From Lentisphaerota bacterium (lineage in GTDB: Bacteria > Verrucomicrobiota > Lentisphaeria > Oligosphaerales > JABHEG01), in contig JABHEG010000064.1 in the NCBI GenBank assembly GCA_018676675.1, forward strand, positions 26,211 through 90,210: 64,000 nucleotides of DNA. Direction: 5' to 3'. Position numbers and translations under genes: made by a program. The stretch's first letter is position 1; each line of letters opens with the position of its first letter. Below are positions 15,009-38,284 of the stretch, one piece after another. The notes beneath the pieces were generated by a model that was not told the DNA's origin, did no database searches, and saw only the letters and a program-made list of their open reading frames with translations.

Positions 15009-15118
15009 CTCCCCGGACACGGGCCGGACGGCCCTGCTCCTGCGCCCCCGCTCTGCCCTCCGACAGCCGATCTTCTGTTGCATCCCTTCTCTGCCACCGT
15101 GGCTTTGGCTTTCCAGCT

Positions 15119-19867: not shown

Positions 19868-22800
19868 CAAAACAACCGACGTCCCTGACGCAGCGGCTGA
19901 GCCGCCTCGTCCGGCAGAAGCACTTGTTCTTCGCCGGACAGGCTCTCACACTCATCGGTCTGCTCGCCTTCATCCTTGCGGGAGCAGTCATTGCCGCCGA
20001 CGTCCTGTTCGGTCTGCAGGCCTGGGTCCGCTGGGCAGCCTTCTTCGTGCTTCTTACCGTCAGCATTGGGGGCCTCCTCCGACGGTTCCTCTTCCCCTCC
20101 CTCCACTACCACAATCCGGAAGCCGTCCGAGAAGTGGAACACCGTTTCGAAGACATGGGGCAGATGCTCCGCACGACAGCTCAGATCGGCGATCCCGAAA
20201 CCGCCCGGGAGGCGGGGTTCTCGCCCGGCCTGGTCAAGGCACTTCAAGACCAGGCAGAAGAACGGGTAGCCGAGACGGATCTGGCCGTGCTCGTGCCGTG
20301 GGGAATCGTGCGTAGGCGGGCCACCGAGCTGGCGCTTGTGCTCCTGGTCTTCGTAGCCGCCCTCTTCCTGTGGAAGGACTTCCGGCGCGGCGCTCAGCGC
20401 CTGCTTCTGCCGGCTGCCGAACTCCCCTTCACGGGTGTGGAAGCCACCGCGTCGACCCCGACCTTCGAACGAGGCGACACGGTCGTTCTGACAGCGCGAA
20501 CGAGCGGACGCCTCACCGACTGTGCCGACCTCCATATCCGTGAAGAAGAGGGTGAATGGAACATCTTCCGGATGGATCCGTTACCCGGTCGCCAATTCAG
20601 CCTCCCCCTCGGAGGGCGCAACGCAAGTTTCGAATTCTACGTCAGCTCAGGTGACGGACGAACCGCAATCTCCCCCGTGCGCTTCATCGATCCCCCAGTC
20701 GTGTTGACTGTCACAGCAAGCCTGACCTACCCCGTCTATACCGGACTTCCCGCGGAAGACGTTGAGGGCGAACAGGTCCTGGCGGTTGAGGGTACGCGAG
20801 CTCGCGTGACGTTCAAACTCAACCACGGGCTGGCGACCGCAGACGCACGATGGCAGGAGCAGGACGTCGCCCTGGAATTCGGCGAGGACACGGTCGTATG
20901 TGAGCTGGAGATCGTGGTCGGGAAACACGTCCTTGAGCTCACGGGGGAAGATGACGATGACTTGCCGTTGGCCCCCTTCCGGTTCACGATCACCGGTCTC
21001 CCGGACCGCCTGCCGAAGATCGAGATCCTGGAACCGACGGAAAACCCCACGGTGACGAAACTGACTGAGGTCCCCGCCCTGATCCGGGCGCGAGATGACT
21101 TCGGGTTGGCGGAGCTCGGACTCGTCCTGAGCGTCAATGGGCAAGAGAGCGTGCTTGACGCCCGGACATTCACGGAGCAGGACTCGATGTTCGCGTCACG
21201 GTTGTCACACGCGATTTTGTTGGAAAGACACGCCCTCGACTTCCGCTCAAACGTCCGCTTGTATGCCTTTGCACGAGACCACAAGCCGCGGGAGGGGGCC
21301 CGGGCAGTGAGTGACCTCGTCGCGATCGACATCCGCCCCTTCAGGATCCTCTACCGCATGAAGCCTCCTGAGGAACCCTCGATGAGCGAGGCCGAGATGG
21401 AGGAACAGGCCGACAACATCGAAGAACTTGAGAAGGCCATCACAGCTCAGCGTCGAGCGCTTTCGCAGACATTCCGGATGCGCGAACAGCAGACGACGGA
21501 CCCCCAGAGCGCAGAGGCCCTCGCCCGGACGGAGGAAGCGTTGGCGGAAAAGGTCAGCGAAATCAGTGAAATCGCAGCCCCACTGACCGAACCGCAGAAT
21601 CAGAGCCTCCTTCCCGAGGCCGCCCAGGCCATGCTTAAGGCAGCCGAGGAGCTCCGCGAGCCTGATGCGGCCGAGGCGTTCACTGCCGAAGACACGGCGC
21701 TCGCGAACATGCTGAAAATGCGTGAAGAACTCATACACGAGCTTCGCGAGCAGCAACAGAACTCACCCCCCAAGCCATCCTCAAAGAAGCAGCAGAAGCC
21801 CAAGCCGCAGCAACCTCTCGATACGTTGGCAGCCGAGGCAGAACGCCTTGCCAGGGAAGAGGAAGCGATCGCGCAGCAGCTGGAAGACAGGCCGCCGGAG
21901 GAAGAGAACGCGCAGCCTCCGTCGCGGCCGCCGCCGCAGGCCCCCCAGCAGAGCGAGGCGGCGGCGGAACGCCAGCAGGCTGATGCCGAAGCCACAGAGC
22001 AGCCTCAGCAGAGCCCCGAAGCACAGGCCGCCGCACAGGATGAACAGGCCGCCGCACAGCAGCAGCCCCAACAGGCCGCCGAGCAGGATGAACAGGCCGG
22101 CGCGCAACAGCAAACTCAACAAGCTACCGAGCAGGATGAACAGGCCGCTGCACAGCAGCAGCCCCAACAAGCTGCCGAGCAGGAGACCGCCCAAGAGCAG
22201 TCTCCCGAAGCGCCGCCCGAGGGTCCCGAAACAACTGAGGAGCAGGCGGCCACACAGCCTGGGCAGGAGCAACCTGAAACACAGATGCCTGAAGCGGACT
22301 CGGGTGAGCAGCCGGAAACCCAGGCAGAAGCCGAGGATGCTGACCAGCCTGAGGAGACCGCCGCGCAGGAGACCGCGCAGGGAGAGGCCGAGTCCAGCTC
22401 CGCCGCCGAACAACCCGCCGCCGAGCAACAACCGGAGCAGGCCGCCTCATCGGAAGGCGCTCCAGATGAGGAACAGGCCCAGGAGTCCAGCCCTCAGGAC
22501 ACTCAGAGCCCAGCCGAACAGGCGGTCACCGAGGCGGCCGAACGACAGGCGAGGGCGGTCGCCGCCGCTAATGCGCTGCAGGACCAGCTTGACGACCATG
22601 CAGAGACGACCGAGCTGGCCATGGAACGAATGAACGAGGTCGCCCAGGCGATGAATCAGGCCGCGGAGGCGTTGGCCGAAGCAAGGCCCGAAGCCGCGCA
22701 GCCTTCCCTTGACGACGCGGCTGAACGGCTGGAACAGCTCGCCGAACACCTGCGGGGGCTGGACCAGAAGAACTTGGCTGACATGCTCACTCAGGCTCAA

Positions 22801-24186
22801 GAGAAGGCGGAACAGGCCGCTCAGCAACTTGAGAACCCGCCCGAACCCAGTTCTGCAGCTGCGCCCCCGCCTGAAGGTGAGGAACAGCCTCAGGCCAACG
22901 CCCCCGCCTCCCCCCAATCGCCGCAGCAGGCCCAGAGCCAGCCAGAGGAGAACGAGCCCCAGGAAGCGCAGCCTTCCCAGAGCCAGCCGCAACAGGCTCA
23001 ACCTCAGGAAGCACAGGCAGCCCAGGGACAACCGCAGCAACCCCAACCCCAGGAAGCGCAGGCAGCCCAGGGGCAGCCACAACAGGGCGAACCCCAGGAA
23101 TCACAACCTTCCCAGAGCCAACCACCCGAACAAGGCCAGCCTCAGGAAGCGCAGGCAGCCCAAGGACAGCCACAGCAATCTCAGCCTCAAGAATCACAAC
23201 CCTCCCAGACCCCGTCGCAATCGCCCTCCCAACAGCAGCAGGCTCAGCAACAGGACGCAAGCAATCCGTCGGAAGAGGCGGAGCAGCGCCCAACTGAGGA
23301 TGCCACGGCTCAGCGCGAAGCCACCGCTCAGGATGCGGAAACAGTCGCGGACTGGCTGCGCCAGGCGTCCGAAAGGGAAGCTGATGGCCTCGAGGCGATG
23401 CAGGAACGGCTGGCCGAAGCGAGGGAGAAGCTCGCGGTGGATGAACTCGGGGATGACATCCGCCAGGCCCAGGAACAGCGCGAGCAGCAACAGGGTGCCG
23501 AGGCGTCACGCATGGAGGCCAGTGCAGCCGAACGGTTCCGCGAACTCGCCGATACCCTGGCCAAGGAGAAGCAGCGCCTTGTGCAGGCCCACTTGGAACG
23601 CCTGGCTGAAGCTGAAGCCGAAGCAACGGAACTCAAACGGACCGCAGAAGCCGAACAGCAAGCCGCAGAAGCCGAGGCACAGGCGCAGAGCGAGAGTCAA
23701 TCTGAGTCTGAAGCACAAGCACAAGCGCAGAGCGAGAGTCAATCTGAGTCTGAAGCACAGGCGCCGAGCCAGTCACCATCTGAATCACAGGCAAAGAGCG
23801 AGGCGCAAGCTGAAGCGCAATCACAGGCCGAAGCGAAAGGCGAATCGGGGAAGGCGAGCCCCCTCAAACCCGACACGACTGAGAGACTGACGGAACTCGC
23901 TGAGGAACTGAAGGACCTGAAGGATGAGGAACTGGACGAGTTGGGCGATCAGTTGCTTGAGCAGGTCGGAGCGCAAAACGTGAGCGGTGGGCACCGGACG
24001 GCCCAGGTGGCCCCAAAAGATATTGCCGAGACGACGCTGGAGCCGACCGTTGAACGCCTGCGCACACTGATCAATGAGATTGTGCAGAAGGAGTTCCTGC
24101 TCAATCGAGACGACCGCGTCCCGGACCGTTACACCCGCCTCGTTGAGCGTTACTTTAAGGCCCTTTCCGACGACTTGGCCGAATAG
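19864..24186 (+). CDS. 1440-aa membrane-anchored, highly acidic Q/E/A/P-rich low-complexity protein (DUF4175-like position after BatA). Overlaps the upstream gene by 4 bp.
   Basis: Two N-terminal TM helices (LTLIGLLAFILAGAVIAADVLFGL, AAFFVLLTVSIGGLL), a structured ~500-aa region, then ~800 aa of EQ/AQ/PQ repeats. Single uninterrupted frame. Confidence 0.7.
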   Translation: MTKQPTSLTQRLSRLVRQKHLFFAGQALTLIGLLAFILAGAVIAADVLFGLQAWVRWAAFFVLLTVSIGGLLRRFLFPSLHYHNPEAVREVEHRFEDMGQMLRTTAQIGDPETAREAGFSPGLVKALQDQAEERVAETDLAVLVPWGIVRRRATELALVLLVFVAALFLWKDFRRGAQRLLLPAAELPFTGVEATASTPTFERGDTVVLTARTSGRLTDCADLHIREEEGEWNIFRMDPLPGRQFSLPLGGRNASFEFYVSSGDGRTAISPVRFIDPPVVLTVTASLTYPVYTGLPAEDVEGEQVLAVEGTRARVTFKLNHGLATADARWQEQDVALEFGEDTVVCELEIVVGKHVLELTGEDDDDLPLAPFRFTITGLPDRLPKIEILEPTENPTVTKLTEVPALIRARDDFGLAELGLVLSVNGQESVLDARTFTEQDSMFASRLSHAILLERHALDFRSNVRLYAFARDHKPREGARAVSDLVAIDIRPFRILYRMKPPEEPSMSEAEMEEQADNIEELEKAITAQRRALSQTFRMREQQTTDPQSAEALARTEEALAEKVSEISEIAAPLTEPQNQSLLPEAAQAMLKAAEELREPDAAEAFTAEDTALANMLKMREELIHELREQQQNSPPKPSSKKQQKPKPQQPLDTLAAEAERLAREEEAIAQQLEDRPPEEENAQPPSRPPPQAPQQSEAAAERQQADAEATEQPQQSPEAQAAAQDEQAAAQQQPQQAAEQDEQAGAQQQTQQATEQDEQAAAQQQPQQAAEQETAQEQSPEAPPEGPETTEEQAATQPGQEQPETQMPEADSGEQPETQAEAEDADQPEETAAQETAQGEAESSSAAEQPAAEQQPEQAASSEGAPDEEQAQESSPQDTQSPAEQAVTEAAERQARAVAAANALQDQLDDHAETTELAMERMNEVAQAMNQAAEALAEARPEAAQPSLDDAAERLEQLAEHLRGLDQKNLADMLTQAQEKAEQAAQQLENPPEPSSAAAPPPEGEEQPQANAPASPQSPQQAQSQPEENEPQEAQPSQSQPQQAQPQEAQAAQGQPQQPQPQEAQAAQGQPQQGEPQESQPSQSQPPEQGQPQEAQAAQGQPQQSQPQESQPSQTPSQSPSQQQQAQQQDASNPSEEAEQRPTEDATAQREATAQDAETVADWLRQASEREADGLEAMQERLAEAREKLAVDELGDDIRQAQEQREQQQGAEASRMEASAAERFRELADTLAKEKQRLVQAHLERLAEAEAEATELKRTAEAEQQAAEAEAQAQSESQSESEAQAQAQSESQSESEAQAPSQSPSESQAKSEAQAEAQSQAEAKGESGKASPLKPDTTERLTELAEELKDLKDEELDELGDQLLEQVGAQNVSGGHRTAQVAPKDIAETTLEPTVERLRTLINEIVQKEFLLNRDDRVPDRYTRLVERYFKALSDDLAE
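22035..22186 (+). repeat. Tandem 48-bp repeat x ~3 inside the 19864 CDS (encodes EQDEQAAAQQQPQQAA units)
   Basis: gagcaggatgaacaggccgccgcacagcagcagccccaacaggccgcc is repeated with a few substitutions. Confidence 0.7.
22960..23215 (+). repeat. Degenerate tandem ~39-42-bp repeats inside the 19864 CDS (QPQEAQAAQGQPQQ units)
   Basis: cctcaggaagcgcaggcagcccagggacagccgcagcaa-like units recur ~6 times. Confidence 0.6.
23684..23767 (+). repeat. Near-perfect 42-bp direct duplication inside the 19864 CDS (AQSESQSESEAQAQ)
   Basis: gcgcagagcgagagtcaatctgagtctgaagcaca occurs twice back-to-back. Confidence 0.75.
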
Positions 24187-26533: not shown

Positions 26534-27016
26534 TCAGAAGAACACCAGGCGTATCTTGGGAATGGCGCCGCAGTGGATTTCGAGTTCTCGGAAGGCGAGG
26601 GATCCAACCCGGACAGCCCGACGCAGAGGAGCGGTCTTCAGGACGGCAATCAGGATCAGGTGAGCCAGCCGATGCTCTTTGGATTCGGCGAGAACAGCGT
26701 CCTTTGTTGCCTCGTCAATCTCTTCGCGCACGGTGAATCTGGGGACAACTTTCGGCGGCATGCCGATGTCGACCGACAGTGAGTCGAGCACATAGCCGGC
26801 CTTCTCGAGGTAGGGCACGGCGTCGTGTAGTTCGTCGGTGATCTGCTTGATCTTGCGGTGGCTGAAGTCCCGCAAAGGTGCAGGCGGCTCCTCGGGCGGC
26901 ACGAGTTCCTGCGGGACAGGCGGCGGGCCATGCCCTCCGGGAAGTGCGTGCTTTACCTCATCAACCACGCCTCCCGCAGTACGAATTGCGCCATCCATCA
27001 GTGAGAGTTTTGCCAT
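26534..27016 (-). CDS. Hypothetical protein (160 aa), divergent from the pspA operon
   Basis: ORF convergent with the 24192 gene and divergent from pspA. No recognisable domain. Contains a proline-rich linker PPPVPQELVPPEEPPAP. Confidence 0.35.
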   Translation of the reverse strand: MAKLSLMDGAIRTAGGVVDEVKHALPGGHGPPPVPQELVPPEEPPAPLRDFSHRKIKQITDELHDAVPYLEKAGYVLDSLSVDIGMPPKVVPRFTVREEIDEATKDAVLAESKEHRLAHLILIAVLKTAPLRRAVRVGSLAFRELEIHCGAIPKIRLVFF

Positions 27017-27198: not shown

Positions 27199-27972
27199 AT
27201 GGGGATCTTTCGTTCTATATATCGGTATGTCGTGACTCTGGGAGGTCTGATCGAGAGTGACATCAGCGGCAAGACCGATGACATGCTCTCTACGCCCTCC
27301 GGGATCAAAGCCACGTTTTCCAAGACCCGCGGCCAATGGACTCGGCAGTACGGGGAAGTGCGGGAAGCCGTAGCTCAACTCATGATGGTCCTTGATCAGA
27401 AGAGTCGCCGAGTCGCCCAGTTGCGAGAGGAAGCAGAGGCCACTCAGGCGAAGCTCAAGGGTGCTGTCGCCAAGTTCAAGGAGACCGACGAGCCCCACTA
27501 CCGCCAGGCTTTCACGGAGCTCTTTGAGCGAGACAAAGCAATCACTGCCGAACAGCAAGGGCTTAGCGATGAGATCGTCGAGCTGCGCAACAAGGTGGAG
27601 AGCTACAAGACAAAACTGCGTGAAATGCAGACGCGCATTTCCGGCTTGAAGAAGCAGGAATCCGAAGCGATCGCCGACATCGTCAGCAGTCAGCAGATCA
27701 TCAAGCTCAACGACAGCTTGAACGAGTTGACAACCGATCTCGACGACCAGAACGTTCGAGCAATCGAGGACCGGCGGCTGAAGCTCCTGAGCCAGGCCAA
27801 ACTCTCCGGCGAACTCACGGAGGGCGAATTGAAGCCGGATCTGGATAAGGAACTCCTGGAGGCAGGCCGGAAGTCAGAAGTCGACGACGTCTTCGCCGCG
27901 ATGTTGGCGGAAACGGAGGCCAGCGCTCCTGAAGCCGAGGAAGAGGAAGGCGAGCGGCAACGTGAAATCTGA
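27199..27972 (+). CDS. pspA: PspA/IM30/Vipp1/LiaH-family protein (bacterial ESCRT-III-like membrane-remodelling protein)
   Basis: N-terminus MGIFRSIYRYV, then a long heptad coiled-coil (RVAQLREEAEATQAKLKGAVAKFKE...). Size and pattern are typical of the PspA/IM30 family. Confidence 0.75.
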   Translation: MGIFRSIYRYVVTLGGLIESDISGKTDDMLSTPSGIKATFSKTRGQWTRQYGEVREAVAQLMMVLDQKSRRVAQLREEAEATQAKLKGAVAKFKETDEPHYRQAFTELFERDKAITAEQQGLSDEIVELRNKVESYKTKLREMQTRISGLKKQESEAIADIVSSQQIIKLNDSLNELTTDLDDQNVRAIEDRRLKLLSQAKLSGELTEGELKPDLDKELLEAGRKSEVDDVFAAMLAETEASAPEAEEEEGERQREI

Positions 27973-27996
27973 CGTCGGCAGTGAAGGGGAGGCAGT

Positions 27997-29775
27997 GTGG
28001 TGGGTAAGACCCAGTTAGATCTGGGGTTCATGGAGCAAATCCGGGACTGGTTCCTCTCTCAGCAGTCGAATCAGTTCCTGGTGACAGGCAACGTTCTCGA
28101 CGTCCTGCGCTGTCCATGGCTGTCTCGGGAAGAACAGCTGTCCGACGCGAACTACGTGTCTCTCCCCGACTATTTGACCACGCGCCTCTCCATGAAGCAG
28201 CGGGTGATCATCACCTTCAACATTGCTCGTGGACTGACCTTCGCAGACGACGCGTCCCATGACATAGCCCGGCGCATCTATCTGTCCCGCTTCGAGCCGG
28301 AGGACGTAGAAGACGCGGAGGAGCGATTCAACGACGTGGTCGCACGCAGCGCAAGCTGGACGTTCCCCGCCCTGGTCCTGTTGCGCAAGCTCTGCGAAGC
28401 TTCCTCGCAACCCCCGCGCCCCAAAGGGGCATCCATCGCCGTGATCATCGAACATGCAGAGAGTCTGCTCCCAAACCTCCCCATTGCCCGCATGGGCGAC
28501 ACCGACCGGCAGCGACTCGTCTTCTTCAAGGAATGGCTGACAGAACGCGGATTCGTGATGTCAGACCACCTGCTGGTGCTCGTGTCCGAGACGGCCAGTG
28601 CGGTCAATGAATCGCTCAGATCCCTCCCTCATCTCGTGACCATCAATATTCCCCTTCCTGAGGAGGACGAACGTCGACGTTTCATTCAGTGGTGCCTGCG
28701 GCGCAATCCCGGGCTTCAGTTGGTCGGCACGCAGAAGGAGTTCGCCCGAATCAGCGCAGGAATGACACTGATGGGCATTGAGCAGACGATTCGGCTGGCC
28801 CAGTACAGACGCGGGAAACTGACCCGCGCGGACTTTGTTGCCTGCCTCAAACGGCTCCTGGTAAGCCGGATCGGTGACCACGTTGAGCTGGTCGAGCCCC
28901 AACATACGCTCGCAGACGTCCTGGGGAACGCCGCTCTGAAGAGCCAGCTCAAGCGCATCACAACGGCCTTGGACCAAGGAGATCCAGGCACCGCTCCGGT
29001 CGGGATCCTGATGACCGGACCGAACGGCGTAGGAAAGACCTTTATCGCTCTTGCCTGGGCCCGGGAAAGTGGACGAACAGCCCTGATACTGCGGAATCTG
29101 CGCAGTTCCTTCTTCGGGGAGACCGATCAGATTTTCGAGAAGATCCGTCAAGTGCTTGAGGTCCTGGGCAATGTGATGATCCTGGTAGACGAAGCGGATA
29201 CGGTATTTGCCCGGCCGGGAGCCAACGTGCATGAGACCGAGCAGCGTCTCTTCGGTAACGTGATCCAGATGATGGGCGATCCTCAGAACCGGTCACGCAT
29301 CCTCTGGGTGCTGATGACGGCCCGCCCGGACAACCTGGCCCCGGACCTGAAACGCAGCGGGCGCTGTGGTCTCCACCTGCCGGTTTTCGATCCGGAGGAT
29401 TCGGATCGACGCCAGTTCGTGGAGGATCTCCTGGCACGGAACGGTGCCAGCATTGACGAAATGCCCACTGAGGGCCTGACAGAGTTCGAAGACCGGACAC
29501 GCGATTACAGCGCAGCAGACTTCCGCGAACTGGCGGCTGAGCTCAAAACCGAGGAGCTGGCTCTAGGGCATCCATTGGCGCCCGACGAGATCCTTGGTGT
29601 TGTGCGCGACATGCTGCCGGCCGAAGGTGGGCCTGAACGCCGAATGCAGACCCTTCAGGCGTTCATGCACTGCTCACGGAAATCACTCGTCCCGAAAAGC
29701 CTGCGCCATCTGGATCGCGAGACCGTAGCGCGTCAAGTTGCGACTATGCAGGGACACACCGACGACGGAGGATAG
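27997..29775 (+). CDS. Classic-clade AAA ATPase (Vps4/FtsH/CbbX/SpoVK-like single active module) with ~330-aa N-terminal domain of unknown function (possibly a degenerate AAA-like module)
   Basis: Walker A GILMTGPNGVGKTF, Walker B VMILVDEADTVF, sensor-1 VLMTARPDNLAPDL, arginine-finger-region RSGRCGLHL. 24 bp after pspA, with a GGAGG-like RBS. Confidence 0.7.
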   Translation: MVGKTQLDLGFMEQIRDWFLSQQSNQFLVTGNVLDVLRCPWLSREEQLSDANYVSLPDYLTTRLSMKQRVIITFNIARGLTFADDASHDIARRIYLSRFEPEDVEDAEERFNDVVARSASWTFPALVLLRKLCEASSQPPRPKGASIAVIIEHAESLLPNLPIARMGDTDRQRLVFFKEWLTERGFVMSDHLLVLVSETASAVNESLRSLPHLVTINIPLPEEDERRRFIQWCLRRNPGLQLVGTQKEFARISAGMTLMGIEQTIRLAQYRRGKLTRADFVACLKRLLVSRIGDHVELVEPQHTLADVLGNAALKSQLKRITTALDQGDPGTAPVGILMTGPNGVGKTFIALAWARESGRTALILRNLRSSFFGETDQIFEKIRQVLEVLGNVMILVDEADTVFARPGANVHETEQRLFGNVIQMMGDPQNRSRILWVLMTARPDNLAPDLKRSGRCGLHLPVFDPEDSDRRQFVEDLLARNGASIDEMPTEGLTEFEDRTRDYSAADFRELAAELKTEELALGHPLAPDEILGVVRDMLPAEGGPERRMQTLQAFMHCSRKSLVPKSLRHLDRETVARQVATMQGHTDDGG

Positions 29776-29780
29776 AACCA

Positions 29781-30181
29781 TGGAACTTGCCGATCCCAAA
29801 GTCATCTACGCCGACATCCTCATCGCGCTCGCCAATGCGGATGACATCGTTGACCCGCGAGAACGAGAGATGCTGGACGGAATTTTCACCCAAATGGGAT
29901 TGGGCGAAGAGACGGTCGCCAAGCTCTGGCTCACGCCGCGAACCCTCGATGTGGCCGAGGCGCTCCTTAAGGACATCACGGATGCTCGCTTCAAACGCTG
30001 TCTCCTGAAAGACTGCTACCTGCTTGCCTATGCCGATGAGGACATCGAGCCGGGCGAAAGCAAATTTATCAAGGCCATGCAGGGAGCGTCCGGTCTCGAT
30101 GATGACGTCGTGGATGCCATCGGGGAATGGGTGGAAACCGCGGTAGCGCAACAGCGCAAAGCCGCCGAACTTTTCGAATAG
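29781..30181 (+). CDS. TerB-like (tellurite-resistance TerB / DjlA-N fold) small protein
   Basis: MELADPKVIYADILIALANADDIVDPREREMLDGIFTQMGL...CYLLAYADEDIEPGESKFIKAM is a paired-helix TerB-like pattern. GGAGGA RBS 7 nt upstream. Starts 6 nt after the AAA gene stop. Confidence 0.5.
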
Positions 30182-30234
30182 ACGCACGTCCGTCAATCGC
30201 TCCGAGGACGCGCTACTGCGAAAGGACATGAAAC

Positions 30235-30903
30235 GTGGAGCTCTTCCAGACAATCACCAGTTCAGGGATGTTCCCCTACACGGTCCTGCTAGGCCTGATG
30301 GTGCTCTATTGGGTCGTGGTCATCATCGGGGCTATCGATATCGGCATTCTCGACTTCTTTGATTTCGGAGACCTGGGCGAGGCGGCCGAGGGAGCAGCGG
30401 AAGGTGTCGAGGCAGCGGGTGAAGCGGCCGAGGGCATGGACGGGGTATTCTCAGCAATCCTTGGCTTCCTGAGCTTGGGACAGGTACCGGTGACCGTGGT
30501 GCTGTCACTGTTGATCTTGAAGCTATGGTTCCTGGCGCTCCTCATGACGCTCTACCTACCGGCATCGCTGCGTGATGTCGTTCCGCCTCTCTTCCTGGGT
30601 GCGGCCGGCTTTGTCTTCGCGTTCATCGTGAGTGTGATGCTCACAGGCTTGACAGCTCGCCCGCTGCGGCGCGTGTTCAAGCGGAACCCGGTGCGAGGCC
30701 ATGCGCACCTGGTGGGCCAGATCTGCAAGGTCAAGAGTTCGCGTGTGACCGAGAAGTTCGGGCAAGCCGAACTGCGGGTGCGCAATTCATTCCTTCTCAT
30801 CGAAGTGAGGTCCAAAGAGGAAGAGGAACTCGAACGCGGACAGGAAGCGGTTATCGTGAGCTATGACCACGATCGCGATGTGTATCACGTTAGGGGGGTG
30901 TAA
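30235..30903 (+). CDS. NfeD-like (YuaF/YqiJ-like) membrane protein with C-terminal OB-fold, partner of SPFH proteins
   Basis: N-terminal TM helices (YTVLLGLMVLYWVVVIIGAI, VTVVLSLLILKLWFLALLMTL) and a C-terminal beta-rich domain (GQICKVKSSRVTEKFGQAELRVRNSFLLIEVRS...EAVIVSYDHDRDVYHVRGV). Directly upstream of a flotillin. Confidence 0.55.
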   Translation: MELFQTITSSGMFPYTVLLGLMVLYWVVVIIGAIDIGILDFFDFGDLGEAAEGAAEGVEAAGEAAEGMDGVFSAILGFLSLGQVPVTVVLSLLILKLWFLALLMTLYLPASLRDVVPPLFLGAAGFVFAFIVSVMLTGLTARPLRRVFKRNPVRGHAHLVGQICKVKSSRVTEKFGQAELRVRNSFLLIEVRSKEEEELERGQEAVIVSYDHDRDVYHVRGV

Positions 30904-30989
30904 TCGCGCAGTCCTGCGCAGGACTGCCGCAGACGTAATGAACCACAAGTTATCTGAGTAACTGGAAACGGAAAAGGAGAGATGGGGCA

Positions 30990-33011
30990 ATGAATGGAAT
31001 TGTGTTCGCAGGGATTCTCGGGCAGAGCATCGGCATGATGATTTTGGGAGGCGCACTAATTTTCGTGGGCTTGATGGTGCTGATCATGAAGTTCTACCGC
31101 AAGGTGGAACAGGGCAAAGCACTGATTGTCAACTGCTGGGGTGACAAGGTCACGGTTACGTTCACCGGTGGGGTGGTCTACCCAATCATTAACAAAGCCG
31201 AGGTCATGGATATCTCGGTGAAAGCGATGGAGATCGAGCGTGAAGGCAAGAACGGTCTGATTTGCGAGGACAACATCCGAGCAGACATCCGTGTGACCTT
31301 CTATGTGCGGGTGAACAAGACCGAGGACGATGTGCTGAAGGTCGCCCAGGCTGTGGGCTGTGCTCGAGCCTCGGCCCGAGAAACACTCGAAGAGCTCTTC
31401 CAAGCCAAATTCTCGGAAGCTCTGAAGACCGTCGGTAAACAGATGGGGTTCATCACTCTGTTCACCGAACGCGAGAGCTTCAAAGAACAGATCATCATGG
31501 TCATTGGGGAAGACCTGAACGGCTACAAGCTGGAAGATGTCGCTATCGACTACCTCGAACAGACCCCGCTGAGCTCGCTTGAGCCGGACAACATCCTGGA
31601 CTCCCAGGGCATCCGTAAGATCGTCGACCTCACCTCGACTGAGGCCATGGCCACGAACGAATTCCGACGGAACAAAGAGCGGGTGATCAAGCAACAGGAC
31701 GTTGAGACGCGAGAGAAGATCCTCGAGCTCGAGCGGCAGGAAGCCGACGCTGAAGCCAAGCAGCACCGTGAGATTGCAACCGTTCAGGCGCGGGAAACGG
31801 CGGAAGCAGAGAAGGTTCAGGCCGAGGAACGTCTCAAGGCTGAGCGAGCTCAGATCCAGACGGCCGAGGAATTGGCGGTCGCGGAACAGAACAAGGACCG
31901 CCAGGTCGAGGTCGCGGCCAAGGCCAAAGAACGCACGATCGCGGTTGAGACCGAGCGGGTCATTCGGGACCGCGAGCTGGAGGAGGTCGAGCGTGAACGC
32001 CTGGTGGCGCTGAAGTCGATCGAGAAGGAGAAAGCGGTCGAGATCGAGAAGAAGCAGATCCAGGATGTCATCCGTGAGCGGGTTATGGTCGAGCGGACCG
32101 TGGCTGAAGAACAAGAGAAGATCAAGGACACGGTTGAGATTGCGGGAGCTGAGCGTGAACGGAAAACACGCGTAATTGCCGCAGAGCGGGATGCCCAGGA
32201 GCTCGTGGTCAAAGAGGTGAAGGCAGCCGAAGCGAAAGAGGAAGCCGCGAAGAGCCTCTACGAAGAGCAGGTGACGATGGCGGAAGCTAGTCGCATCAAG
32301 GCTGAAAAGGAAGGCGAAGCGAAGAAGACACTCGCGGCAGGAACGGTGGCTGAGAAGTCGGCGGAAGGACTGGCCGACGTGCGGGTGCAGGAAGCGGAAG
32401 CAAACGCCATTGAGCTGCGCGGCAAGGCAGAAGCCGTAGCCCAGATCGAGGGCCACAAGGCCACGGCGTTCGGGACCGAGACGACCGGTGAAGCCAAAGC
32501 CAAGGCTATGACGCTGGAGTACCAGGCCGAGGCCACGGGCATCAACCAGAAGGCCGACGCCATGAAGCGGCTGGATGAGGTCGGACGTGACCACGAGGAG
32601 TTCAAACTCGAACTCACCAAGGAAGAGCGCGTCGAGCTGGCCACCATCGACGTCAACCGCCAGATCGCCGAGGCTCAGGCCACGGTGTTGGCAGAAGCCA
32701 TGAAGACCGCCAAGATCGATATCGTGGGCGGGGACGGCGAATTCCTCAAGAACTTCCTCCGCTCCGTCAGTCTGGCTAAGTCGGTCGATGAATTCGTGAG
32801 TAAGAGTGACGAAGCCCAGAAGCTGCTGGACGGAGATGACGGGAACATCGCGTCGCGGATGGCGGATGTCCTGTCCTCCGCGGGCATTGGCTCCGATGAC
32901 GTCCGCAACTTGAGTCTGGCCAACTTGATGGCCAAACTCGGCGAAACCAAAGGCGGTCCCCAGGCGATTGAAGGGCTGCGGGAAATGATGGTCGGCTGGC
33001 TCGAGAAGTAG
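30990..33011 (+). CDS. floT: Flotillin-like SPFH/band-7 protein (FloT/YuaG/YqiK-type) with long coiled-coil region
   Basis: N-terminal TM (FAGILGQSIGMMILGGALIFVGLMVLIMKF). SPFH domain (ALIVNCWGDKVTVTFTGGVVYPIINKAEVMDISVKAM...). Then ~350 aa EA-rich heptads typical of flotillins. Confidence 0.8.
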   Translation: MNGIVFAGILGQSIGMMILGGALIFVGLMVLIMKFYRKVEQGKALIVNCWGDKVTVTFTGGVVYPIINKAEVMDISVKAMEIEREGKNGLICEDNIRADIRVTFYVRVNKTEDDVLKVAQAVGCARASARETLEELFQAKFSEALKTVGKQMGFITLFTERESFKEQIIMVIGEDLNGYKLEDVAIDYLEQTPLSSLEPDNILDSQGIRKIVDLTSTEAMATNEFRRNKERVIKQQDVETREKILELERQEADAEAKQHREIATVQARETAEAEKVQAEERLKAERAQIQTAEELAVAEQNKDRQVEVAAKAKERTIAVETERVIRDRELEEVERERLVALKSIEKEKAVEIEKKQIQDVIRERVMVERTVAEEQEKIKDTVEIAGAERERKTRVIAAERDAQELVVKEVKAAEAKEEAAKSLYEEQVTMAEASRIKAEKEGEAKKTLAAGTVAEKSAEGLADVRVQEAEANAIELRGKAEAVAQIEGHKATAFGTETTGEAKAKAMTLEYQAEATGINQKADAMKRLDEVGRDHEEFKLELTKEERVELATIDVNRQIAEAQATVLAEAMKTAKIDIVGGDGEFLKNFLRSVSLAKSVDEFVSKSDEAQKLLDGDDGNIASRMADVLSSAGIGSDDVRNLSLANLMAKLGETKGGPQAIEGLREMMVGWLEK

Positions 33012-33022
33012 GACGATTGAAG

Positions 33023-36000
33023 ATGGCTGACGAAGAAACCAGACAGGACGTGGCCCAAAACCGGCAGGAAGAGGCAGCCGAGCAGCAGTCTCTCGAAGGC
33101 GGAGCATATGAGGTCCTCCGAAAACGCCTGGAGGCGTTGGACGGGGACCTATGCTCACGCCTCGAGAAACTCAACGTTGCCCGGAAGGAGGTGTTCGGGG
33201 GTAAGGAGTCCCAGGTCATTGGGAATGACAGGATCCCGACTGACAACAACTGTGTGCCACGGGACATCACAGGTGTCGGCGACTATGTCATCTTTGGTTA
33301 CAACGTCTTCATCGGTCTGCGGACCCAGACCAAGATTGGTGATGTGCTCAGCGTACACTTGCTGGAGGACACACACTTCCGTCACGTAGACAACGAGGTG
33401 CTGTCCGACCCGAGATTCGTCAAGGACTTCACCGAACTCTACACCTACTACAAGCATGCCCGCTTCCTTCAGTTTGTCCGGAAGACGGGGTCGCTCCTGA
33501 TCATCTTCCAGACCGGCGCAAGCCTGGACGACGTCTGCATATTCCGGTTCCAGGTCAACAAGGACGACACGGTTGAGTACATCGACAATCGGGGTGATAT
33601 CCACTACAAACTGCCGGCCCAGCATGAGTTTGAGTGGGTTAGTACGACCCGGGACAACCAGGTCCAGGGCATGCACCCCCACATCAGCGTTGACGACAGG
33701 GTGTTTGTCGAGTGCACGGAAGGTGACCTGACCATCAAGGTCGAGAACAACACCGAGACGGGCGAAGGCGTCTACTCAGAGCCGGTAGACAACAAGGACC
33801 AGACGCTGGACGATGCGGACATTCGGTACGCGATCGTCGGCGACCTGATTCTGTTCAGGATTCGGCCCTACCGTGAAGACCGCGACCGCCATCTTGTGTT
33901 CAACCAGAAGCGGCAGACTGCCGTCCGCATGGATTCCATCGCTCAAGCATGCATCCAGTTGCCTGAAGACCACGGCATCATTACCCCAAAGGGCTACTAC
34001 CTCCAGGATGGACGGCAGCGGGAATTCGATGAAAACGTCGAGGGGATGGGCTATCTCGAGTGCATCAAATCCCCCAACGGCGAGGACTTCCTTTACATCT
34101 TCTACCACGTCGCCCAGGGACGACACGTCCTGATCCAGTACAACCTCATCTCCAAAGAGCTGAGCACGCCGATCTTCTGTCACGGTTACTCCCTGTACGG
34201 CGATGGCCGGATGGTGCTCTTCAGTGCCCCGGACGAAGAGCCCAAGCGCATCCACCCAATGCAGGTTTGGCAGACTCCCTTCTACGCTGATACGCACGAG
34301 GTAACTCAGGACGCAGATTCGTTCCTGGGCAAGATCGGCAACCGGGCGTTGGTTCGCGGCATCTCCGAAGGGTACGCAATCAGTCGGCTCATCACGAGCA
34401 GCCACATCACTCTGGAGACATACCACGACTCGATCAGAGCCACCACGCACATGCTGGACGGCTACCATTGGCTGGGGCATGAGGACGTCTTCGATCTGCA
34501 AGGCGTGGTGCAGCAGGTGAAGGCAGCGGCCGTAGCCGCGGTAGACGAGTACGAGAAGGTCGTCACCATCAGGGAGAGCACGGAACAGCAGTTGCGCGAG
34601 AATGATGCCGCGGTCCGTGATTGTCTACTGACGTTCAGCATCGACCGCATGGAGTCCATCGATGATTATGTCAATGGACTGGCCGGGATCCGTTCGCGGC
34701 GTGGTCACATCATTTCTCTGCGAGAACTCCGCTACGTTGATCTAGAGCTGATTGATCGGCTCGATGGGAGGCTTGAGGAACGCAGCGGGGAGCTCGCCCT
34801 GTCATGCGTGGATTTCCTGCTCAGGCCGGACGCGCTGAAGCCCTACACCGCAGTGAACACCGAACTGGATGCCAAGCTGGAAGAGGTCGGCAAGATCGCC
34901 GATCTCAAACCCATTATCGAATCTCTCGAAGACTTGGCCGGCCGACTCGACCTGTTGACCGATATTGTCAATAATCTGGAGATCGACGACGCGACCAAGA
35001 CAACCCGGATTGTCGACAGCATCACCGACGTATACGCGGGGGTGAACCGCACGCGAGCCATGGCGCGGACACTGCGCCAGGACATTGGCAAGGTCGAAGC
35101 CAAAGCCGAATTCGCCGCCCAGTTCAAGCTGGTCAGCCAAAGCATCACCAACTACATCGGCATGTGCGACACGCCGGAGAAGTGTGACGAACTGCTGACC
35201 AAAGTGATGGTGACGGTTGAGGAACTCGAGGGACGCTTCGCTGACTACGAGGAATACGTCACACAGCTAGCCGAGAAACGTGAAGAGGCCTACACCGCCT
35301 TCTCCAGCCGAAAACAGGTACTGGATGAGGAAAGGAAGCGCCGCGTTTCCTCTCTCGTGTCATCGGCGGAACGCATCTTGAAAGGCGTGGTCAACCGAGC
35401 CGAGACATTCGAGAGCATTGATGAGGTGAATGCGTACTTCGCATCCGACCTCATGGTCTCGAAGGTGCGCGACGCCATCACCCGCCTCCATGAGATTGGG
35501 GACTCCGTCAAGGCCGATGACTTGACCGGCCGGCTGCGAAGCTCCAAAGATGAGCTTATCCGCCACCTCAGGGACAAGATCGACCTGTTCCAGGGCGGCG
35601 ACAACATCATCTCCTTCGGCGACTACCGATTCACCGTCAATACCCAGCCCCTCGAACTGACCACGGTGTATCGCGACGATGAGATGGTCTTCCATCTGAC
35701 CGGGACGGACTTCTACGAAGCCATCGAGGATCCTGAATTCCTGGCCACTCGCGACCTATGGCAGCAGCAACTCGTCAGCGAGAGCAGGGATGTGTACCGC
35801 GGGGAGTTCCTGGCCTACCAGATGCTGACTGCAGCCATCAATGGACAGTCAGGACTCTCAACCGGCCTGCTGACAGAAAAAGCTGAAGCAGAGGAATTGT
35901 TGCCGTTGGTGAGGGAGTTTTCCGCCGCTCTGTATGACGAAGGCTACGAGCGGGGTGTCCATGACCACGATGCTGGACTCATCCTTACCGCGATCATCCA

Positions 36001-38284
36001 GCTCTACAACACCTGCGAACTTTTGCGCTACGACTCCACCTCCCGTGGGCATGCGATCCTCTTCTGGTGCTTCTACGAGGGCGAGGACGTCAAGACCATG
36101 CTGCGCACACGCATGCGGAGTGTGGGGACGTTGCCCCGGATCTTCGGCCATGATGAACCCAATCTCGAGTACATTGAGGAAATCCGGAAGCGTGTCGAGG
36201 AGTTCCACCGTACCTTGGATCTGGACCTCGACGCCGCCACGCTGGCCCACTCGGCCGAGTATCTCTACTACGAGCTCCAGGATACACACGAACTGGAGTT
36301 CACCGTCAACGCACTGGCTCATCAGCTCCACCAGCGCTTCATCGGTGTGCTGCGCGGACGCAAGGCGTTGAAGCAGTTCGAGGAAGACATTGCAGCCGTT
36401 GACGAGGTCGCCAGACGCATCGATCTGATTGCCGACTGGGTGTCTGCCTTCATCCGCAAGGAGGAGCCTGAAGACAGCGCCCATTTCCTCTGGGAAGTGG
36501 TAGCACTCATTGCGGCCGGAGAAGTCATCAGCCGCGACACGACCGAAGTGACGACCTTTGCCGCGGTTAAGGGGGTTCTTGGCCAGCACCCGCTGATCCA
36601 TGACAAGACGCTTGACCTTCACTTTGATCGTTTCCTGATCAAGATGAAGCAGTTCGCCGAGTCCCGTGTGCCGACGTTCCGTACGTACGTGCATCTCCGG
36701 GCCGAACTCACCGAGAAGCGTCGGCGAGAGATGCGGCTGTCGGAGTTCCAGTCCAAGGTCATGGGCTCCTTCGTCCGCAACAAGTTGATTAACGATGTCT
36801 ATCTCAATCTGGTGGGTGCGAACTTCGCAAAGCAGATGGGTGTGGCCGGCGAAGCGAAGCGGACGGATTTGATGGGATTGCTGCTACTCGTCTCCCCGCC
36901 GGGGTATGGAAAAACGACCCTCATGGAATACGTGGCCAACCGACTGGGCCTGACCTTCATGAAAGTCAACGGCCCGGCAATCGGACACCAGGTGACCTCA
37001 CTGGATCCGGTCGAGGCCCCCAACGCGACCGCACGCGAAGAGCTTGGGAAACTGAATCTTGCCTTCGAGATGGGCAATAACATCATGATCTATCTCGATG
37101 ACATACAGCACCTGAACCCCGAACTCCTTCAGAAATTTATCTCCCTCTGTGACGCTCAGCGGAAGATCGAAGGCGTGTACCGCGGAGTCACGCGGACGTA
37201 CGATCTGCGTGGCAAGAAGGTCGCCGTGGTGATGGCCGGAAATCCATACACAGAGAGTGGCGAGAAGTTCAGGATCCCGGACATGTTGGCTAACCGGGCC
37301 GACACCTACAACCTCGGAGATATCAGCAGTACAGCCGCGGATGCGTTCGCGTTGAGTTTCGTCGAGAACGCCATGACCTCCAATCCCGTCCTCTCGAAAA
37401 TCGCTTCCCATGGGCATGAGGACATCTATCGTTTCATGGATGTCGTGCGGAAGGGGTCGCAGGAAGGCATCGAGTTCGACTACAGCTACTCAGCCGCGGA
37501 AGCCAAGGAGATCACCGATGTTCTCGCTAAGCTCTGCACGGTACGCGATGTCGTTCTTCGAGTTAACAGCCAGTACATCGCCTCTGCGGCTCAGGAGGAT
37601 GACTACCGCACGGAGCCGCCTTTCAGGCTTCAGGGCTCCTACCGGAACATGAATCGAATGGCGGAGAAGGTTTTCCCGGTCATGACCGACGAGGAAGTCA
37701 TTCAGGTCGTCTTCGACCATTACTACAATGAGGCTCAGACGCTCACGACCGGAGCCGAAAGCAATATCCTCAAGTTCAAGGAGATGATGCAGGCTCTGAC
37801 CGACGATGAGCAGGCTCGGTGGCAGGAGATCAGGACCGAGTTCGGTCGACGCCAAGTGCTGTCGGGAGTTGACGATACGGATGACCTGGGCAAGATTCTA
37901 GCCCAGCTCTCGGGCTTCAACGCAGGGATGGGGCGCATTCGGGACACGCTGAACAGCGGCCTTGGATCAGGTATGAAAGCCCTCACCGAGGCCGTTCAGA
38001 AGACGACCGAGAAGGGCCCTGATGAGGGACCGTCCATCGACCTGGCTCCCGTGGTCGAGGCTCTGCAGCAACTCCGGGACGCGCCAAAGCAGGACGCCCC
38101 TGCCACCCAGGCGCTGCCCGGCTACGACGAAGCGTTGGCAAAGCAAGTGTCACTGCTCGAGTGTCTCGTCCCCATGGTCGAGCACCTGGAGGAGCAGTCA
38201 ATCACGCACGTCCGCATCCGTGAGCTGATTGAGGGAATTCTCTCCGGAAACGTCGTCGTGGCCATGAACTCCGGCGGCCAGTAG
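33023..38284 (+). CDS. Giant (~1754 aa) protein: ~1250-aa N-terminal region with no recognisable domain + single C-terminal MoxR/AAA_5 (dynein-related)-type P-loop ATPase module
   Basis: Walker A LLLLVSPPGYGKTTLMEYVANRL, Walker B IMIYLDDIQHLNPE, sensor-1 VAVVMAGNPY, Arg MLANRADTYNLGD. Starts 11 nt after the flotillin stop, so it is probably translationally coupled. The longest-ORF TTG at 33017 was trimmed to the ATG at 33023. Confidence 0.7.
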   Translation: MADEETRQDVAQNRQEEAAEQQSLEGGAYEVLRKRLEALDGDLCSRLEKLNVARKEVFGGKESQVIGNDRIPTDNNCVPRDITGVGDYVIFGYNVFIGLRTQTKIGDVLSVHLLEDTHFRHVDNEVLSDPRFVKDFTELYTYYKHARFLQFVRKTGSLLIIFQTGASLDDVCIFRFQVNKDDTVEYIDNRGDIHYKLPAQHEFEWVSTTRDNQVQGMHPHISVDDRVFVECTEGDLTIKVENNTETGEGVYSEPVDNKDQTLDDADIRYAIVGDLILFRIRPYREDRDRHLVFNQKRQTAVRMDSIAQACIQLPEDHGIITPKGYYLQDGRQREFDENVEGMGYLECIKSPNGEDFLYIFYHVAQGRHVLIQYNLISKELSTPIFCHGYSLYGDGRMVLFSAPDEEPKRIHPMQVWQTPFYADTHEVTQDADSFLGKIGNRALVRGISEGYAISRLITSSHITLETYHDSIRATTHMLDGYHWLGHEDVFDLQGVVQQVKAAAVAAVDEYEKVVTIRESTEQQLRENDAAVRDCLLTFSIDRMESIDDYVNGLAGIRSRRGHIISLRELRYVDLELIDRLDGRLEERSGELALSCVDFLLRPDALKPYTAVNTELDAKLEEVGKIADLKPIIESLEDLAGRLDLLTDIVNNLEIDDATKTTRIVDSITDVYAGVNRTRAMARTLRQDIGKVEAKAEFAAQFKLVSQSITNYIGMCDTPEKCDELLTKVMVTVEELEGRFADYEEYVTQLAEKREEAYTAFSSRKQVLDEERKRRVSSLVSSAERILKGVVNRAETFESIDEVNAYFASDLMVSKVRDAITRLHEIGDSVKADDLTGRLRSSKDELIRHLRDKIDLFQGGDNIISFGDYRFTVNTQPLELTTVYRDDEMVFHLTGTDFYEAIEDPEFLATRDLWQQQLVSESRDVYRGEFLAYQMLTAAINGQSGLSTGLLTEKAEAEELLPLVREFSAALYDEGYERGVHDHDAGLILTAIIQLYNTCELLRYDSTSRGHAILFWCFYEGEDVKTMLRTRMRSVGTLPRIFGHDEPNLEYIEEIRKRVEEFHRTLDLDLDAATLAHSAEYLYYELQDTHELEFTVNALAHQLHQRFIGVLRGRKALKQFEEDIAAVDEVARRIDLIADWVSAFIRKEEPEDSAHFLWEVVALIAAGEVISRDTTEVTTFAAVKGVLGQHPLIHDKTLDLHFDRFLIKMKQFAESRVPTFRTYVHLRAELTEKRRREMRLSEFQSKVMGSFVRNKLINDVYLNLVGANFAKQMGVAGEAKRTDLMGLLLLVSPPGYGKTTLMEYVANRLGLTFMKVNGPAIGHQVTSLDPVEAPNATAREELGKLNLAFEMGNNIMIYLDDIQHLNPELLQKFISLCDAQRKIEGVYRGVTRTYDLRGKKVAVVMAGNPYTESGEKFRIPDMLANRADTYNLGDISSTAADAFALSFVENAMTSNPVLSKIASHGHEDIYRFMDVVRKGSQEGIEFDYSYSAAEAKEITDVLAKLCTVRDVVLRVNSQYIASAAQEDDYRTEPPFRLQGSYRNMNRMAEKVFPVMTDEEVIQVVFDHYYNEAQTLTTGAESNILKFKEMMQALTDDEQARWQEIRTEFGRRQVLSGVDDTDDLGKILAQLSGFNAGMGRIRDTLNSGLGSGMKALTEAVQKTTEKGPDEGPSIDLAPVVEALQQLRDAPKQDAPATQALPGYDEALAKQVSLLECLVPMVEHLEEQSITHVRIRELIEGILSGNVVVAMNSGGQ

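Follow-up and report, generated by a model that had tools for sequence, protein, structure and literature searches.

A giant MoxR-type AAA+ ATPase encoded beside SPFH/flotillin-like and YqiJ-like genes in a Lentisphaerota bacterium

Introduction

What bacterial flotillins and other SPFH scaffolds do remains under debate, and we know of no dedicated ATP-driven partner that has been characterized for a flotillin-type cage. Here, we describe a gene for a giant ATPase that lies directly downstream of an SPFH/flotillin-like gene in a Lentisphaerota bacterium (assembly GCA_018676675.1). The DNA analyzed, referred to as the window, is a stretch of 64,000 nucleotides (nt) from contig JABHEG010000064.1, positions 26,211-90,210 of the forward strand; coordinates are those of the window unless another locus is named. 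The giant belongs to a family with the DUF3686 domain, and this family is a strong candidate for the ATP-driven partner of a flotillin-type cage because it is large, widespread, strictly syntenic with an SPFH/NfeD pair, and has an ATPase core under strong selection. We consider it fairly probable that the giant is an ATP-driven remodeler of its cognate SPFH/YqiJ scaffold, encoded in a Psp-type envelope-stress operon.

The closest described system is a family of operons reported by Ravi et al. (2024, mSystems, PMC11237479). Section 19 of that paper describes operons that join a CesT/Tir-PspA dyad with a YqiJ/YuaF-type protein of three transmembrane (TM) segments, and abbreviated operons with the last three genes only are given as more widely distributed. 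In the supplementary table, the Dokdonia entry places a “Betapropeller+Coiled-coil+AAA-ATPase” protein after “YqiJ-YuaF” and “Band-7+Coiled-coil+Flotillin.” According to the same source, PspA is also paired with AAA+ ATPases, and the operon is placed in an extended phage-shock-protein (Psp) envelope-stress repertoire on the basis of comparative genomics.

As this family is described in that section and table, the giant of the window belongs to it, and the family corresponds to the combination DUF3686 + DUF7902 + AAA. The two were equated because a Hymenobacter operon shows the published architecture and encodes an ATPase with 45% identity to that of the window over 92% of the length. Shared features are the domain order (propeller, coiled coil, AAA+), the gene order (YqiJ-like, SPFH/flotillin-like, ATPase), and the link to PspA. 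In contrast to the published operons, the window has no recognizable CesT/Tir gene, its PspA is of a divergent subfamily with just 42 homologue clusters, and genes for a classical AAA protein and a TerB protein sit between PspA and YqiJ. The initial annotation, which was made from the sequence alone, had left open whether the giant belongs to a known family with a standard neighborhood. Going by the published account it largely does, but that family has been described in silico and not biochemically. Already known were the Pfam models, a product name at NCBI that is misleading, and the in silico description, which was published with the same neighborhood. The six-gene version of the operon (divergent PspA, classical AAA, TerB) and the placement of the ATPase module in the CbbQ/NorQ type by its structure may be new, which is a modest advance.

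The giant gene and its SPFH-like and YqiJ-like partners

The three core genes are the following:

30235-30903, + strand: YqiJ/YuaF-type (short NfeD, DUF1449-like) multi-pass membrane protein, 222 amino acids (aa)
30990-33011, + strand: membrane-anchored SPFH/flotillin-like protein, 673 aa, made up of an N-terminal TM segment, an SPFH-like region, and a long coiled coil rich in E, A, and K
33023-38284, + strand: giant ATPase, 1753 aa, with a predicted beta-propeller, a helical bundle, a helical middle domain, and a MoxR-type AAA+ module (Pfam and AlphaFold)

The giant open reading frame (ORF) runs on the + strand without interruption from a TTG at 33017 or an ATG at 33023 to the stop codon at 38282-38284. 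From the ATG, the product has 1753 aa and an estimated mass of roughly 196 kDa. The initial annotation had given 1754 aa, a figure that includes the stop codon, and was correct about the intact ORF itself. Independent gene callers called the identical 1753-aa product on 20 independently assembled metagenome contigs, and the NCBI entry “MAG: AAA family ATPase [Lentisphaerae bacterium]” is 100% identical to the giant. Since the same product is found on 20 contigs and in this entry, the ORF is neither a chance frame nor a fused pseudogene. An assembly artifact, for which nothing was found in favor beyond the fact that the window stems from a metagenome-assembled genome, has a practically negligible chance of being the explanation and can be considered refuted. 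Besides the 20 contigs, complete genomes of cultured bacteria hold full-length homologues of 1600-2036 aa, and every folded domain is gap-free in the alignment. The giant is a cytoplasmic, soluble protein, and no TM segment was found in it.

The SPFH-like gene upstream stops with TAG at 33009-33011, leaving a gap of exactly 11 nt to the ATG of the giant, as the initial annotation had stated. To place this arrangement in a wider context, one genome per species was scanned, which gave 170 relatives, of which 80 loci were kept. Seventy-three of these were evaluable, each having 2.3 kb or more of DNA on the upstream side. An SPFH-like homologue lies directly upstream of the giant and on the same strand in all 73, which supports the functional link to the flotillin-like gene that had been suspected. 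A YqiJ-like homologue precedes the SPFH gene in 64 of the 73 (tblastn). The YqiJ-like and SPFH genes often overlap by 1-4 nt. Across the family, the SPFH gene and the giant are separated by a median of ~107 nt (range 26-1082 nt), and only the window and its 89%-identical relative have the 11-nt gap. Because this spacing is exceptional, the “stoichiometric co-expression” that the initial annotation had read from it is not justified.

The 673-aa protein has one TM segment, within aa 1-37. Band_7 was found in 4 of 22 of its homologues (42-67% identical; best E 4e-15), and a profile of the 22-member family matched QmcA in the PDB weakly (E 2e-3); a PDB search with the single 673-aa sequence gave nothing. 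PGAP names the orthologue on plasmid pQBR103 an “SPFH domain-containing protein.” Through this transitive homology, the 673-aa protein would be SPFH/flotillin-like, an assignment unproven for the window copy itself, and we infer that it faces the cytoplasm. The 222-aa protein has three hydrophobic stretches and a weak Pfam match to YqiJ_N (E 0.037), and its Hymenobacter orthologue is named “DUF1449 family protein” by PGAP.

Two minor observations concern the SPFH gene. Two loci of S. maltophilia (L057 7844-9052 and L064 7164-8861) have SPFH genes that appear truncated or frameshifted, with ORFs of 402 and 565 aa, respectively, compared to the usual ~672 aa. The short ORFs leave ~0.9-1.1 kb before the giant, and pseudogenization or a sequencing error is possible. 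In the window, an ORF of 700 aa on the - strand (31056-33158) is antisense to nearly the whole SPFH-like gene. Its product is of low complexity and rich in L, R, F, and D. In all likelihood the ORF is not a gene but arises from the codons of the E/A/K-rich coiled coil on the + strand.

Domain architecture of the giant protein

Structure models of the giant were made with AlphaFold as two overlapping halves, using an alignment of 86 sequences. Conservation is given as identity to the window protein among 86 homologues that are 44-66% identical to it overall. The parts of the protein are as follows:

33146-34468, + strand: DUF3686 domain, aa 42-482 (Pfam, model, and Foldseek)
34322-35587, + strand: helical bundle or coiled-coil stalk, aa 434-855 (model, predicted local distance difference test score, pLDDT, ~80-90)
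34829-35077, + strand: DUF7902, aa 603-685, inside the helical stalk (Pfam, E 2e-24)
35600-36772, + strand: small beta domain, aa 860-900, then a mostly helical middle domain, aa 925-1250 (models)
36875-37942, + strand: AAA+ core, aa 1285-1450, with the lid and a conserved helical C-domain to about aa 1640
37943-38281, + strand: C-terminal tail, aa 1641-1753, poorly conserved

The first ~1250 aa had been described as having no recognizable motif, which proved incorrect. Pfam DUF3686 (PF12458), which carries the label “ATPase involved in DNA repair,” matches over profile positions 1-448 of 448 with an E-value of 8e-184 and 611 bits against a cut-off of 25, and DUF7902 follows. Mean pLDDT was 85 in both modeled halves. 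In the model, a long N-terminal helix (aa 6-58) precedes an all-beta domain of about 27 strands (aa 64-417), which is predicted to be a six- or seven-bladed beta-propeller. When the N-terminal half was compared to the PDB with Foldseek, almost all of the 50 listed matches (E 3e-6 to 4e-4) were proteins that contain a beta-propeller, including nucleoporins (Nup), Elp1, IFT-A, Ski8, sialidase, prolyl oligopeptidase, WD40, and Kelch. The helical stalk is gap-free in the 86 homologues.

Most of aa 880-1240 was modeled with pLDDT above 90, and the middle domain is the least conserved of the folded parts, at 37% mean identity; the folded domains other than the AAA core range from 37 to 62%. A degenerate AAA or VWA domain was considered for aa 925-1250 and rejected, since this part is almost purely helical in the model, with no beta-alpha-beta pattern. 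At the other end of the protein, the initial annotation had seen a helical tail of ~300 aa. The helical C-domain is indeed present and conserved, but the segment also includes the AAA+ lid and ends in ~110 aa of low confidence. This last tail has a pLDDT of 40-66, 18% mean identity, and frequent gaps, and tblastn matches in other genomes mostly stop near aa 1630-1650. A sequence search of the PDB with the giant found matches confined to ~35-50 residues around Walker A, and no solved relative.

The AAA+ module

The initial annotation had reported one P-loop module with a GYGKTT Walker A, a DD Walker B, and a GNP sensor 1, and all of these are present. The single Walker A, SPPGYGKTT, is at aa 1291-1299 (K1297), and no second GK[ST] motif was found in the giant. 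This P-loop, Walker B (YLDDIQH, D1359-D1360), and sensor 1 (GNP, N1407) are invariant in the 86 homologues, and R1425 and R1541 are candidates for the arginine finger and sensor 2, respectively. The AAA core has a mean identity of 83%. This value and the invariant catalytic residues indicate an enzyme under strong selection.

The module is of the MoxR type and CbbQ/NorQ-like. Its closest structural similarity is to MoxR-family enzymes, and the model contains a pre-sensor-1 beta-hairpin (strands aa 1381-1386 and 1389-1394). Pfam AAA_5 is just over its threshold (25.3 bits against a cut-off of 22, E 1.7e-5), and the generic Pfam AAA (PF00004) outscores it at 34.3 bits. The structural similarity and the AAA_5 score above cut-off bear out the MoxR/AAA_5-like class that had been proposed. 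NCBIfam has no model for the family and gave only sub-threshold RuvB matches over ~50 residues. The giant differs from other enzymes of the CbbQ/NorQ type in several respects: sequence identity is 13-15%, the Walker A (PPGxGKTT) resembles that of RuvB or of classical AAA proteins, and the Walker B reads DD instead of DE. Free-standing MoxR enzymes act with separate VWA adaptors (CbbO, NorD). The giant, on the other hand, has no VWA/MIDAS partner gene and carries ~1250 fused residues as an adaptor. No VWA/MIDAS domain was found by Pfam in the giant or the operon proteins, or in the annotated plasmid operons.

Asp-Glu is the usual Walker B of AAA+ enzymes, and Asp-Asp is also found in DnaA-type switch ATPases. 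The Asp-Asp Walker B of the giant suggests a slow or switch-like, regulated cycle.

Distribution of the family

When 8000 candidates were scored at the 90% identity level (E <= 1e-10), more than 6700 homologue clusters of the giant were obtained, and the 120 best listed clusters share its domain content. The N-terminal domain alone gave 686 clusters at 50% identity (E <= 1e-3), and the complete proteins that contain it, with the domain at the N-terminus, are 1600-2036 aa long. Many members are titled “DNA repair ATPase” or “ATPase involved in DNA repair” by NCBI/UniRef. Loci were found in at least seven phyla, with Planctomycetota, Lentisphaerota, Verrucomicrobiota, Bacteroidota, Acidobacteriota, Myxococcota, and many Gammaproteobacteria represented. 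The gammaproteobacterial carriers include Pseudomonas, Stenotrophomonas, Lysobacter, and Pragia. Plasmid-borne copies are present on pQBR103 and on plasmids of Hymenobacter, Deinococcus, and Streptomyces. Complete Escherichia coli genomes probed with DNA of the Pragia orthologue gave no match, and phage records contained no homologue of the giant.

The wider neighborhood

Upstream of the giant cassette are three more co-directional genes, 4-86 nt apart:

27199-27972, + strand: PspA/IM30-family (ESCRT-III-like) coiled-coil protein, 257 aa, first gene of the six-gene cluster
27997-29775, + strand: classical AAA ATPase, 592 aa, with a VCP/Cdc48-like domain at aa 333-517 and an uncharacterized N-terminal part of ~300 aa
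29780-30181, + strand: TerB-domain protein, 133 aa from the gene callers' start (Pfam TerB, E 6e-7)

The 257-aa protein matches Pfam PspA_IM30 over nearly its full length with an E-value of 6e-4, which is under the cut-off. PF04012 was found in 17 of 41 (~40%) of its other homologues, mostly 55-68% identical, and JGI labels several of its homologues “phage shock protein A.” The 592-aa protein matches Pfam AAA (E 1e-16) and VAT/p97 in the PDB (E 1e-28), with partial NCBIfam matches to CDC48, PAN, FtsH, and CdvC.

Together, the genes form a unit in the order PspA-like, classical AAA (~590 aa), TerB, YqiJ-like, SPFH-like, giant. The unit is kept with different flanks in the window (27199-38284) and in loci L085 (1276-13265) and L087 (1796-13256). 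The six-gene set occurs in relatives with giants 89% and 64% identical to that of the window, the latter from an 8.8-Mb contig; another relative with a 64% identical giant has the three-gene core only. In the 80 genome loci, tblastn and phmmer searches with the PspA-like, 592-aa AAA, TerB, M20 peptidase, and PfkB genes of the window found none. The upstream three genes are thus lineage-specific, as confirmed in L085 and L087, and their combination with the core is not described in the cited section and table of PMC11237479. The M20 peptidase downstream was considered as a part of the system and rejected because it is not conserved in the 80 loci.

PspA itself is a recurrent neighbor. With a local PspA profile, it was found directly upstream of the cassette in 27 loci. 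No CesT/Tir-like gene was recognized in the window. The Hymenobacter plasmid operon consists of a Tir chaperone, PspA/IM30, DUF1449, a hypothetical protein, and a “DNA repair ATPase.” On pQBR103 of Pseudomonas fluorescens SBW25 (L083; NC_009444.1, 85112-97641), the cassette is joined to a polyamine-type Psp operon, with PspA, rhomboid, DUF2491, DUF350, DUF1190, and glutathionylspermidine synthase genes ahead of it. The rhomboid gene there (L083 427-981) is beside PspA and upstream of the cassette. In 7 loci from Pseudomonas, Pragia, and Limnobaculum (L015, L016, L017, L018, L020, L028, and L038), a rhomboid protease gene is directly downstream of the giant, at about 14925-15800. Rhomboid proteases may be a further recurrent partner.

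A scan for promoters and terminators gave counts no higher than those of shuffled controls; two promoter-like sites just 5' of 27199 are suggestive only. An ORF of 160 aa on the - strand (26534-27016) is divergent from the pspA-like gene. It was called as a gene on the identical contigs, and it had no family match and no homologue in related loci. L085 has an 82-aa gene on the - strand at the equivalent position. The guanine-cytosine (GC) content is 0.573-0.585 over the SPFH gene and the giant (30001-38000) and 0.60-0.65 on both sides. The lower GC may be due to the composition of coiled-coil genes or to a different origin of the cassette.

Possible function and alternatives

The family lends itself well to experiments on how flotillin-type scaffolds work in bacteria. 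As a remodeler of its own scaffold, the giant would probably form a hexameric ring of AAA+ modules and act, as other MoxR ATPases do, as a chaperone-like remodeler rather than a processive unfoldase. The fused propeller and long helical stalk could serve as a built-in adaptor in place of a separate VWA protein, docking the ring onto the cytoplasm-facing SPFH/YqiJ cage at the inner membrane. By binding ATP and hydrolyzing it slowly, the ring might assemble, open, or take apart the cage, or hand over its clients, under membrane stress. PspA and its own classical AAA partner could form a parallel module that resembles ESCRT-III with Vps4.

Several points weigh against this proposal. We infer the contact between the giant and the SPFH/YqiJ scaffold from synteny only, and the formation of a hexamer is assumed from the predicted fold. 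The SPFH-like protein of the window is a divergent copy: Pfam found no Band_7 in it, and nothing even at E < 10. The name “flotillin” that the initial annotation gave to this neighbor does not hold for the window copy in Pfam and holds at the SPFH level through the homologues with Band_7. Co-transcription of the SPFH gene and the giant is likely but unproven, as a gap of ~100 nt is usual and some loci have at least 400 nt. At the helix-2-insert position (aa 1316-1335), the giant has a conserved loop that was modeled without a hairpin. Without a VWA partner, the way in which CbbQO and NorQD engage their substrates is not transferable to the giant. Very weak ATPase activity is another possible meaning of the Asp-Asp Walker B. 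As for the literature, we found no paper that mentions DUF3686, none in which a “DNA repair ATPase” is connected to flotillin, and no experiments on a member of the family. Nothing relevant was found on flotillin and MoxR together, and a 2026 paper on the SPFH proteins of P. aeruginosa leaves an ATPase of the giant type unmentioned.

Another possibility, which we hold to be a real contender though rather less than likely, is that the giant is itself what the scaffold controls. As with HflK/C-FtsH, an SPFH/YqiJ cage would regulate or corral the giant, whose targets, within the cage or at its rim, would be others such as PspA polymers or membrane proteins that are damaged or unassembled. SPFH cages are known to enclose or regulate AAA+ enzymes (HflK/C-FtsH; prohibitin and the m-AAA protease), and the SPFH scaffold is genetically coupled to an AAA+ ATPase in those systems as it is here. 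The giant's scaffold is accompanied by an NfeD-type protein, much as QmcA is by YbbJ. The obligate synteny fits this arrangement equally well, PspA lies upstream in the 27 loci mentioned, and the rhomboid neighbors hint at membrane-protein quality control. Against this, the giant has neither a protease domain nor a TM anchor. Aromatic pore loops, as in unfoldases, are missing from rings of the MoxR type, and the giant has IGH-x-VTSLDP as its conserved loop. Compared to HflK/C-FtsH, the ATPase is soluble and of the MoxR and not the classical clade, and its SPFH partner resembles flotillins and has a single TM segment, at the N-terminus. No third-party client was identified by any of the data.

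The remaining explanations fare much worse. The names given by NCBI/UniRef to many members, a RuvB-like Walker A region, weak RuvB_N/RuvB matches, and the best Foldseek E-values would fit an ATPase that acts on DNA in repair, like RuvB or SMC/Rad50. A full-length RuvB match, a DNA-binding winged helix, and repair-gene neighbors were not found, and we consider it highly improbable that the database name is literally true. The initial annotation had raised the idea of a conflict-system effector. It is also very unlikely that the giant acts in this way, as effector or as sensor, in defense against phages or in another conflict, with a membrane scaffold guarding it. Copies do occur on large plasmids, the GC over 30-38 kb is slightly lower than in the flanks, and PADLOC gave weak similarities to ZorA (E 5e-5, over a helical stretch) and to IetA/TRIP13 over the P-loop (IetA 5e-4). 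The PADLOC scan of the giant and seven neighbors returned coiled-coil and P-loop fragments only, however, with no system-level match; the ZorA-like match covers 130 helical residues (aa 672-804) and was rejected as helical composition and not homology. No phage homologue was found, and Pfam gave no effector domain such as a nuclease or toxin. Metabolic genes, which vary between genomes, flank the unit. The neighborhoods are of the Psp type, and the recurrent partners (PspA, polyamine genes, rhomboid) are envelope-stress themes. The analogy to midasin and dynein, in which the giant would be a force-generating motor with its long N-terminal part as lever and cargo binder, is already disfavored and has very little chance of being right. 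The AAA_5 clade and the very large size are shared with those heavy chains, but they have six AAA modules per chain and specialized lever or MIDAS parts, whereas the giant has one module and no MIDAS or VWA domain.

The proposed remodeling of the SPFH/YqiJ scaffold by the giant also invites comparison with ESCRT-III/PspA and Vps4, where the gene for a polymer-forming scaffold is beside that for an ATPase thought to remodel it. The giant differs in that it is not a classical AAA protein, has no MIT domain, and has an SPFH partner instead of ESCRT-III. The window has an ESCRT-III/Vps4-like pair of its own in the PspA-like and classical AAA genes (27199-29775). A more far-reaching and speculative proposal, which we regard as unlikely, is that the six-gene unit is a self-contained machine for membrane remodeling or repair. 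It would consist of two scaffold-plus-ATPase pairs, an ESCRT-III-like polymer with a Vps4-like AAA and a flotillin-like cage with the giant, and the propeller-helical part of the giant would couple both as a coat-like adaptor. If true, this would be a prokaryotic analogue of the cooperation of coats, ESCRT, and flotillins in eukaryotes, in a member of the PVC superphylum.

Tractable carriers of the family include P. fluorescens SBW25 with pQBR103, Stenotrophomonas maltophilia, Proteus mirabilis, and Vibrio campbellii. A known function would connect the Psp/ESCRT-III branch of membrane maintenance to the SPFH branch, and it would correct the misleading name “DNA repair ATPase,” which now stands in thousands of annotations.

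Other observations in the window

Outside the six-gene unit, a gene on the + strand (19864-24186) encodes a protein of 1440 aa with N-terminal TM segments, a weak match to DUF4175 (E 0.01), and very long repeats rich in Q, E, A, P, and S. A spike in AT skew of 0.53 at 22-24 kb coincides with this gene.

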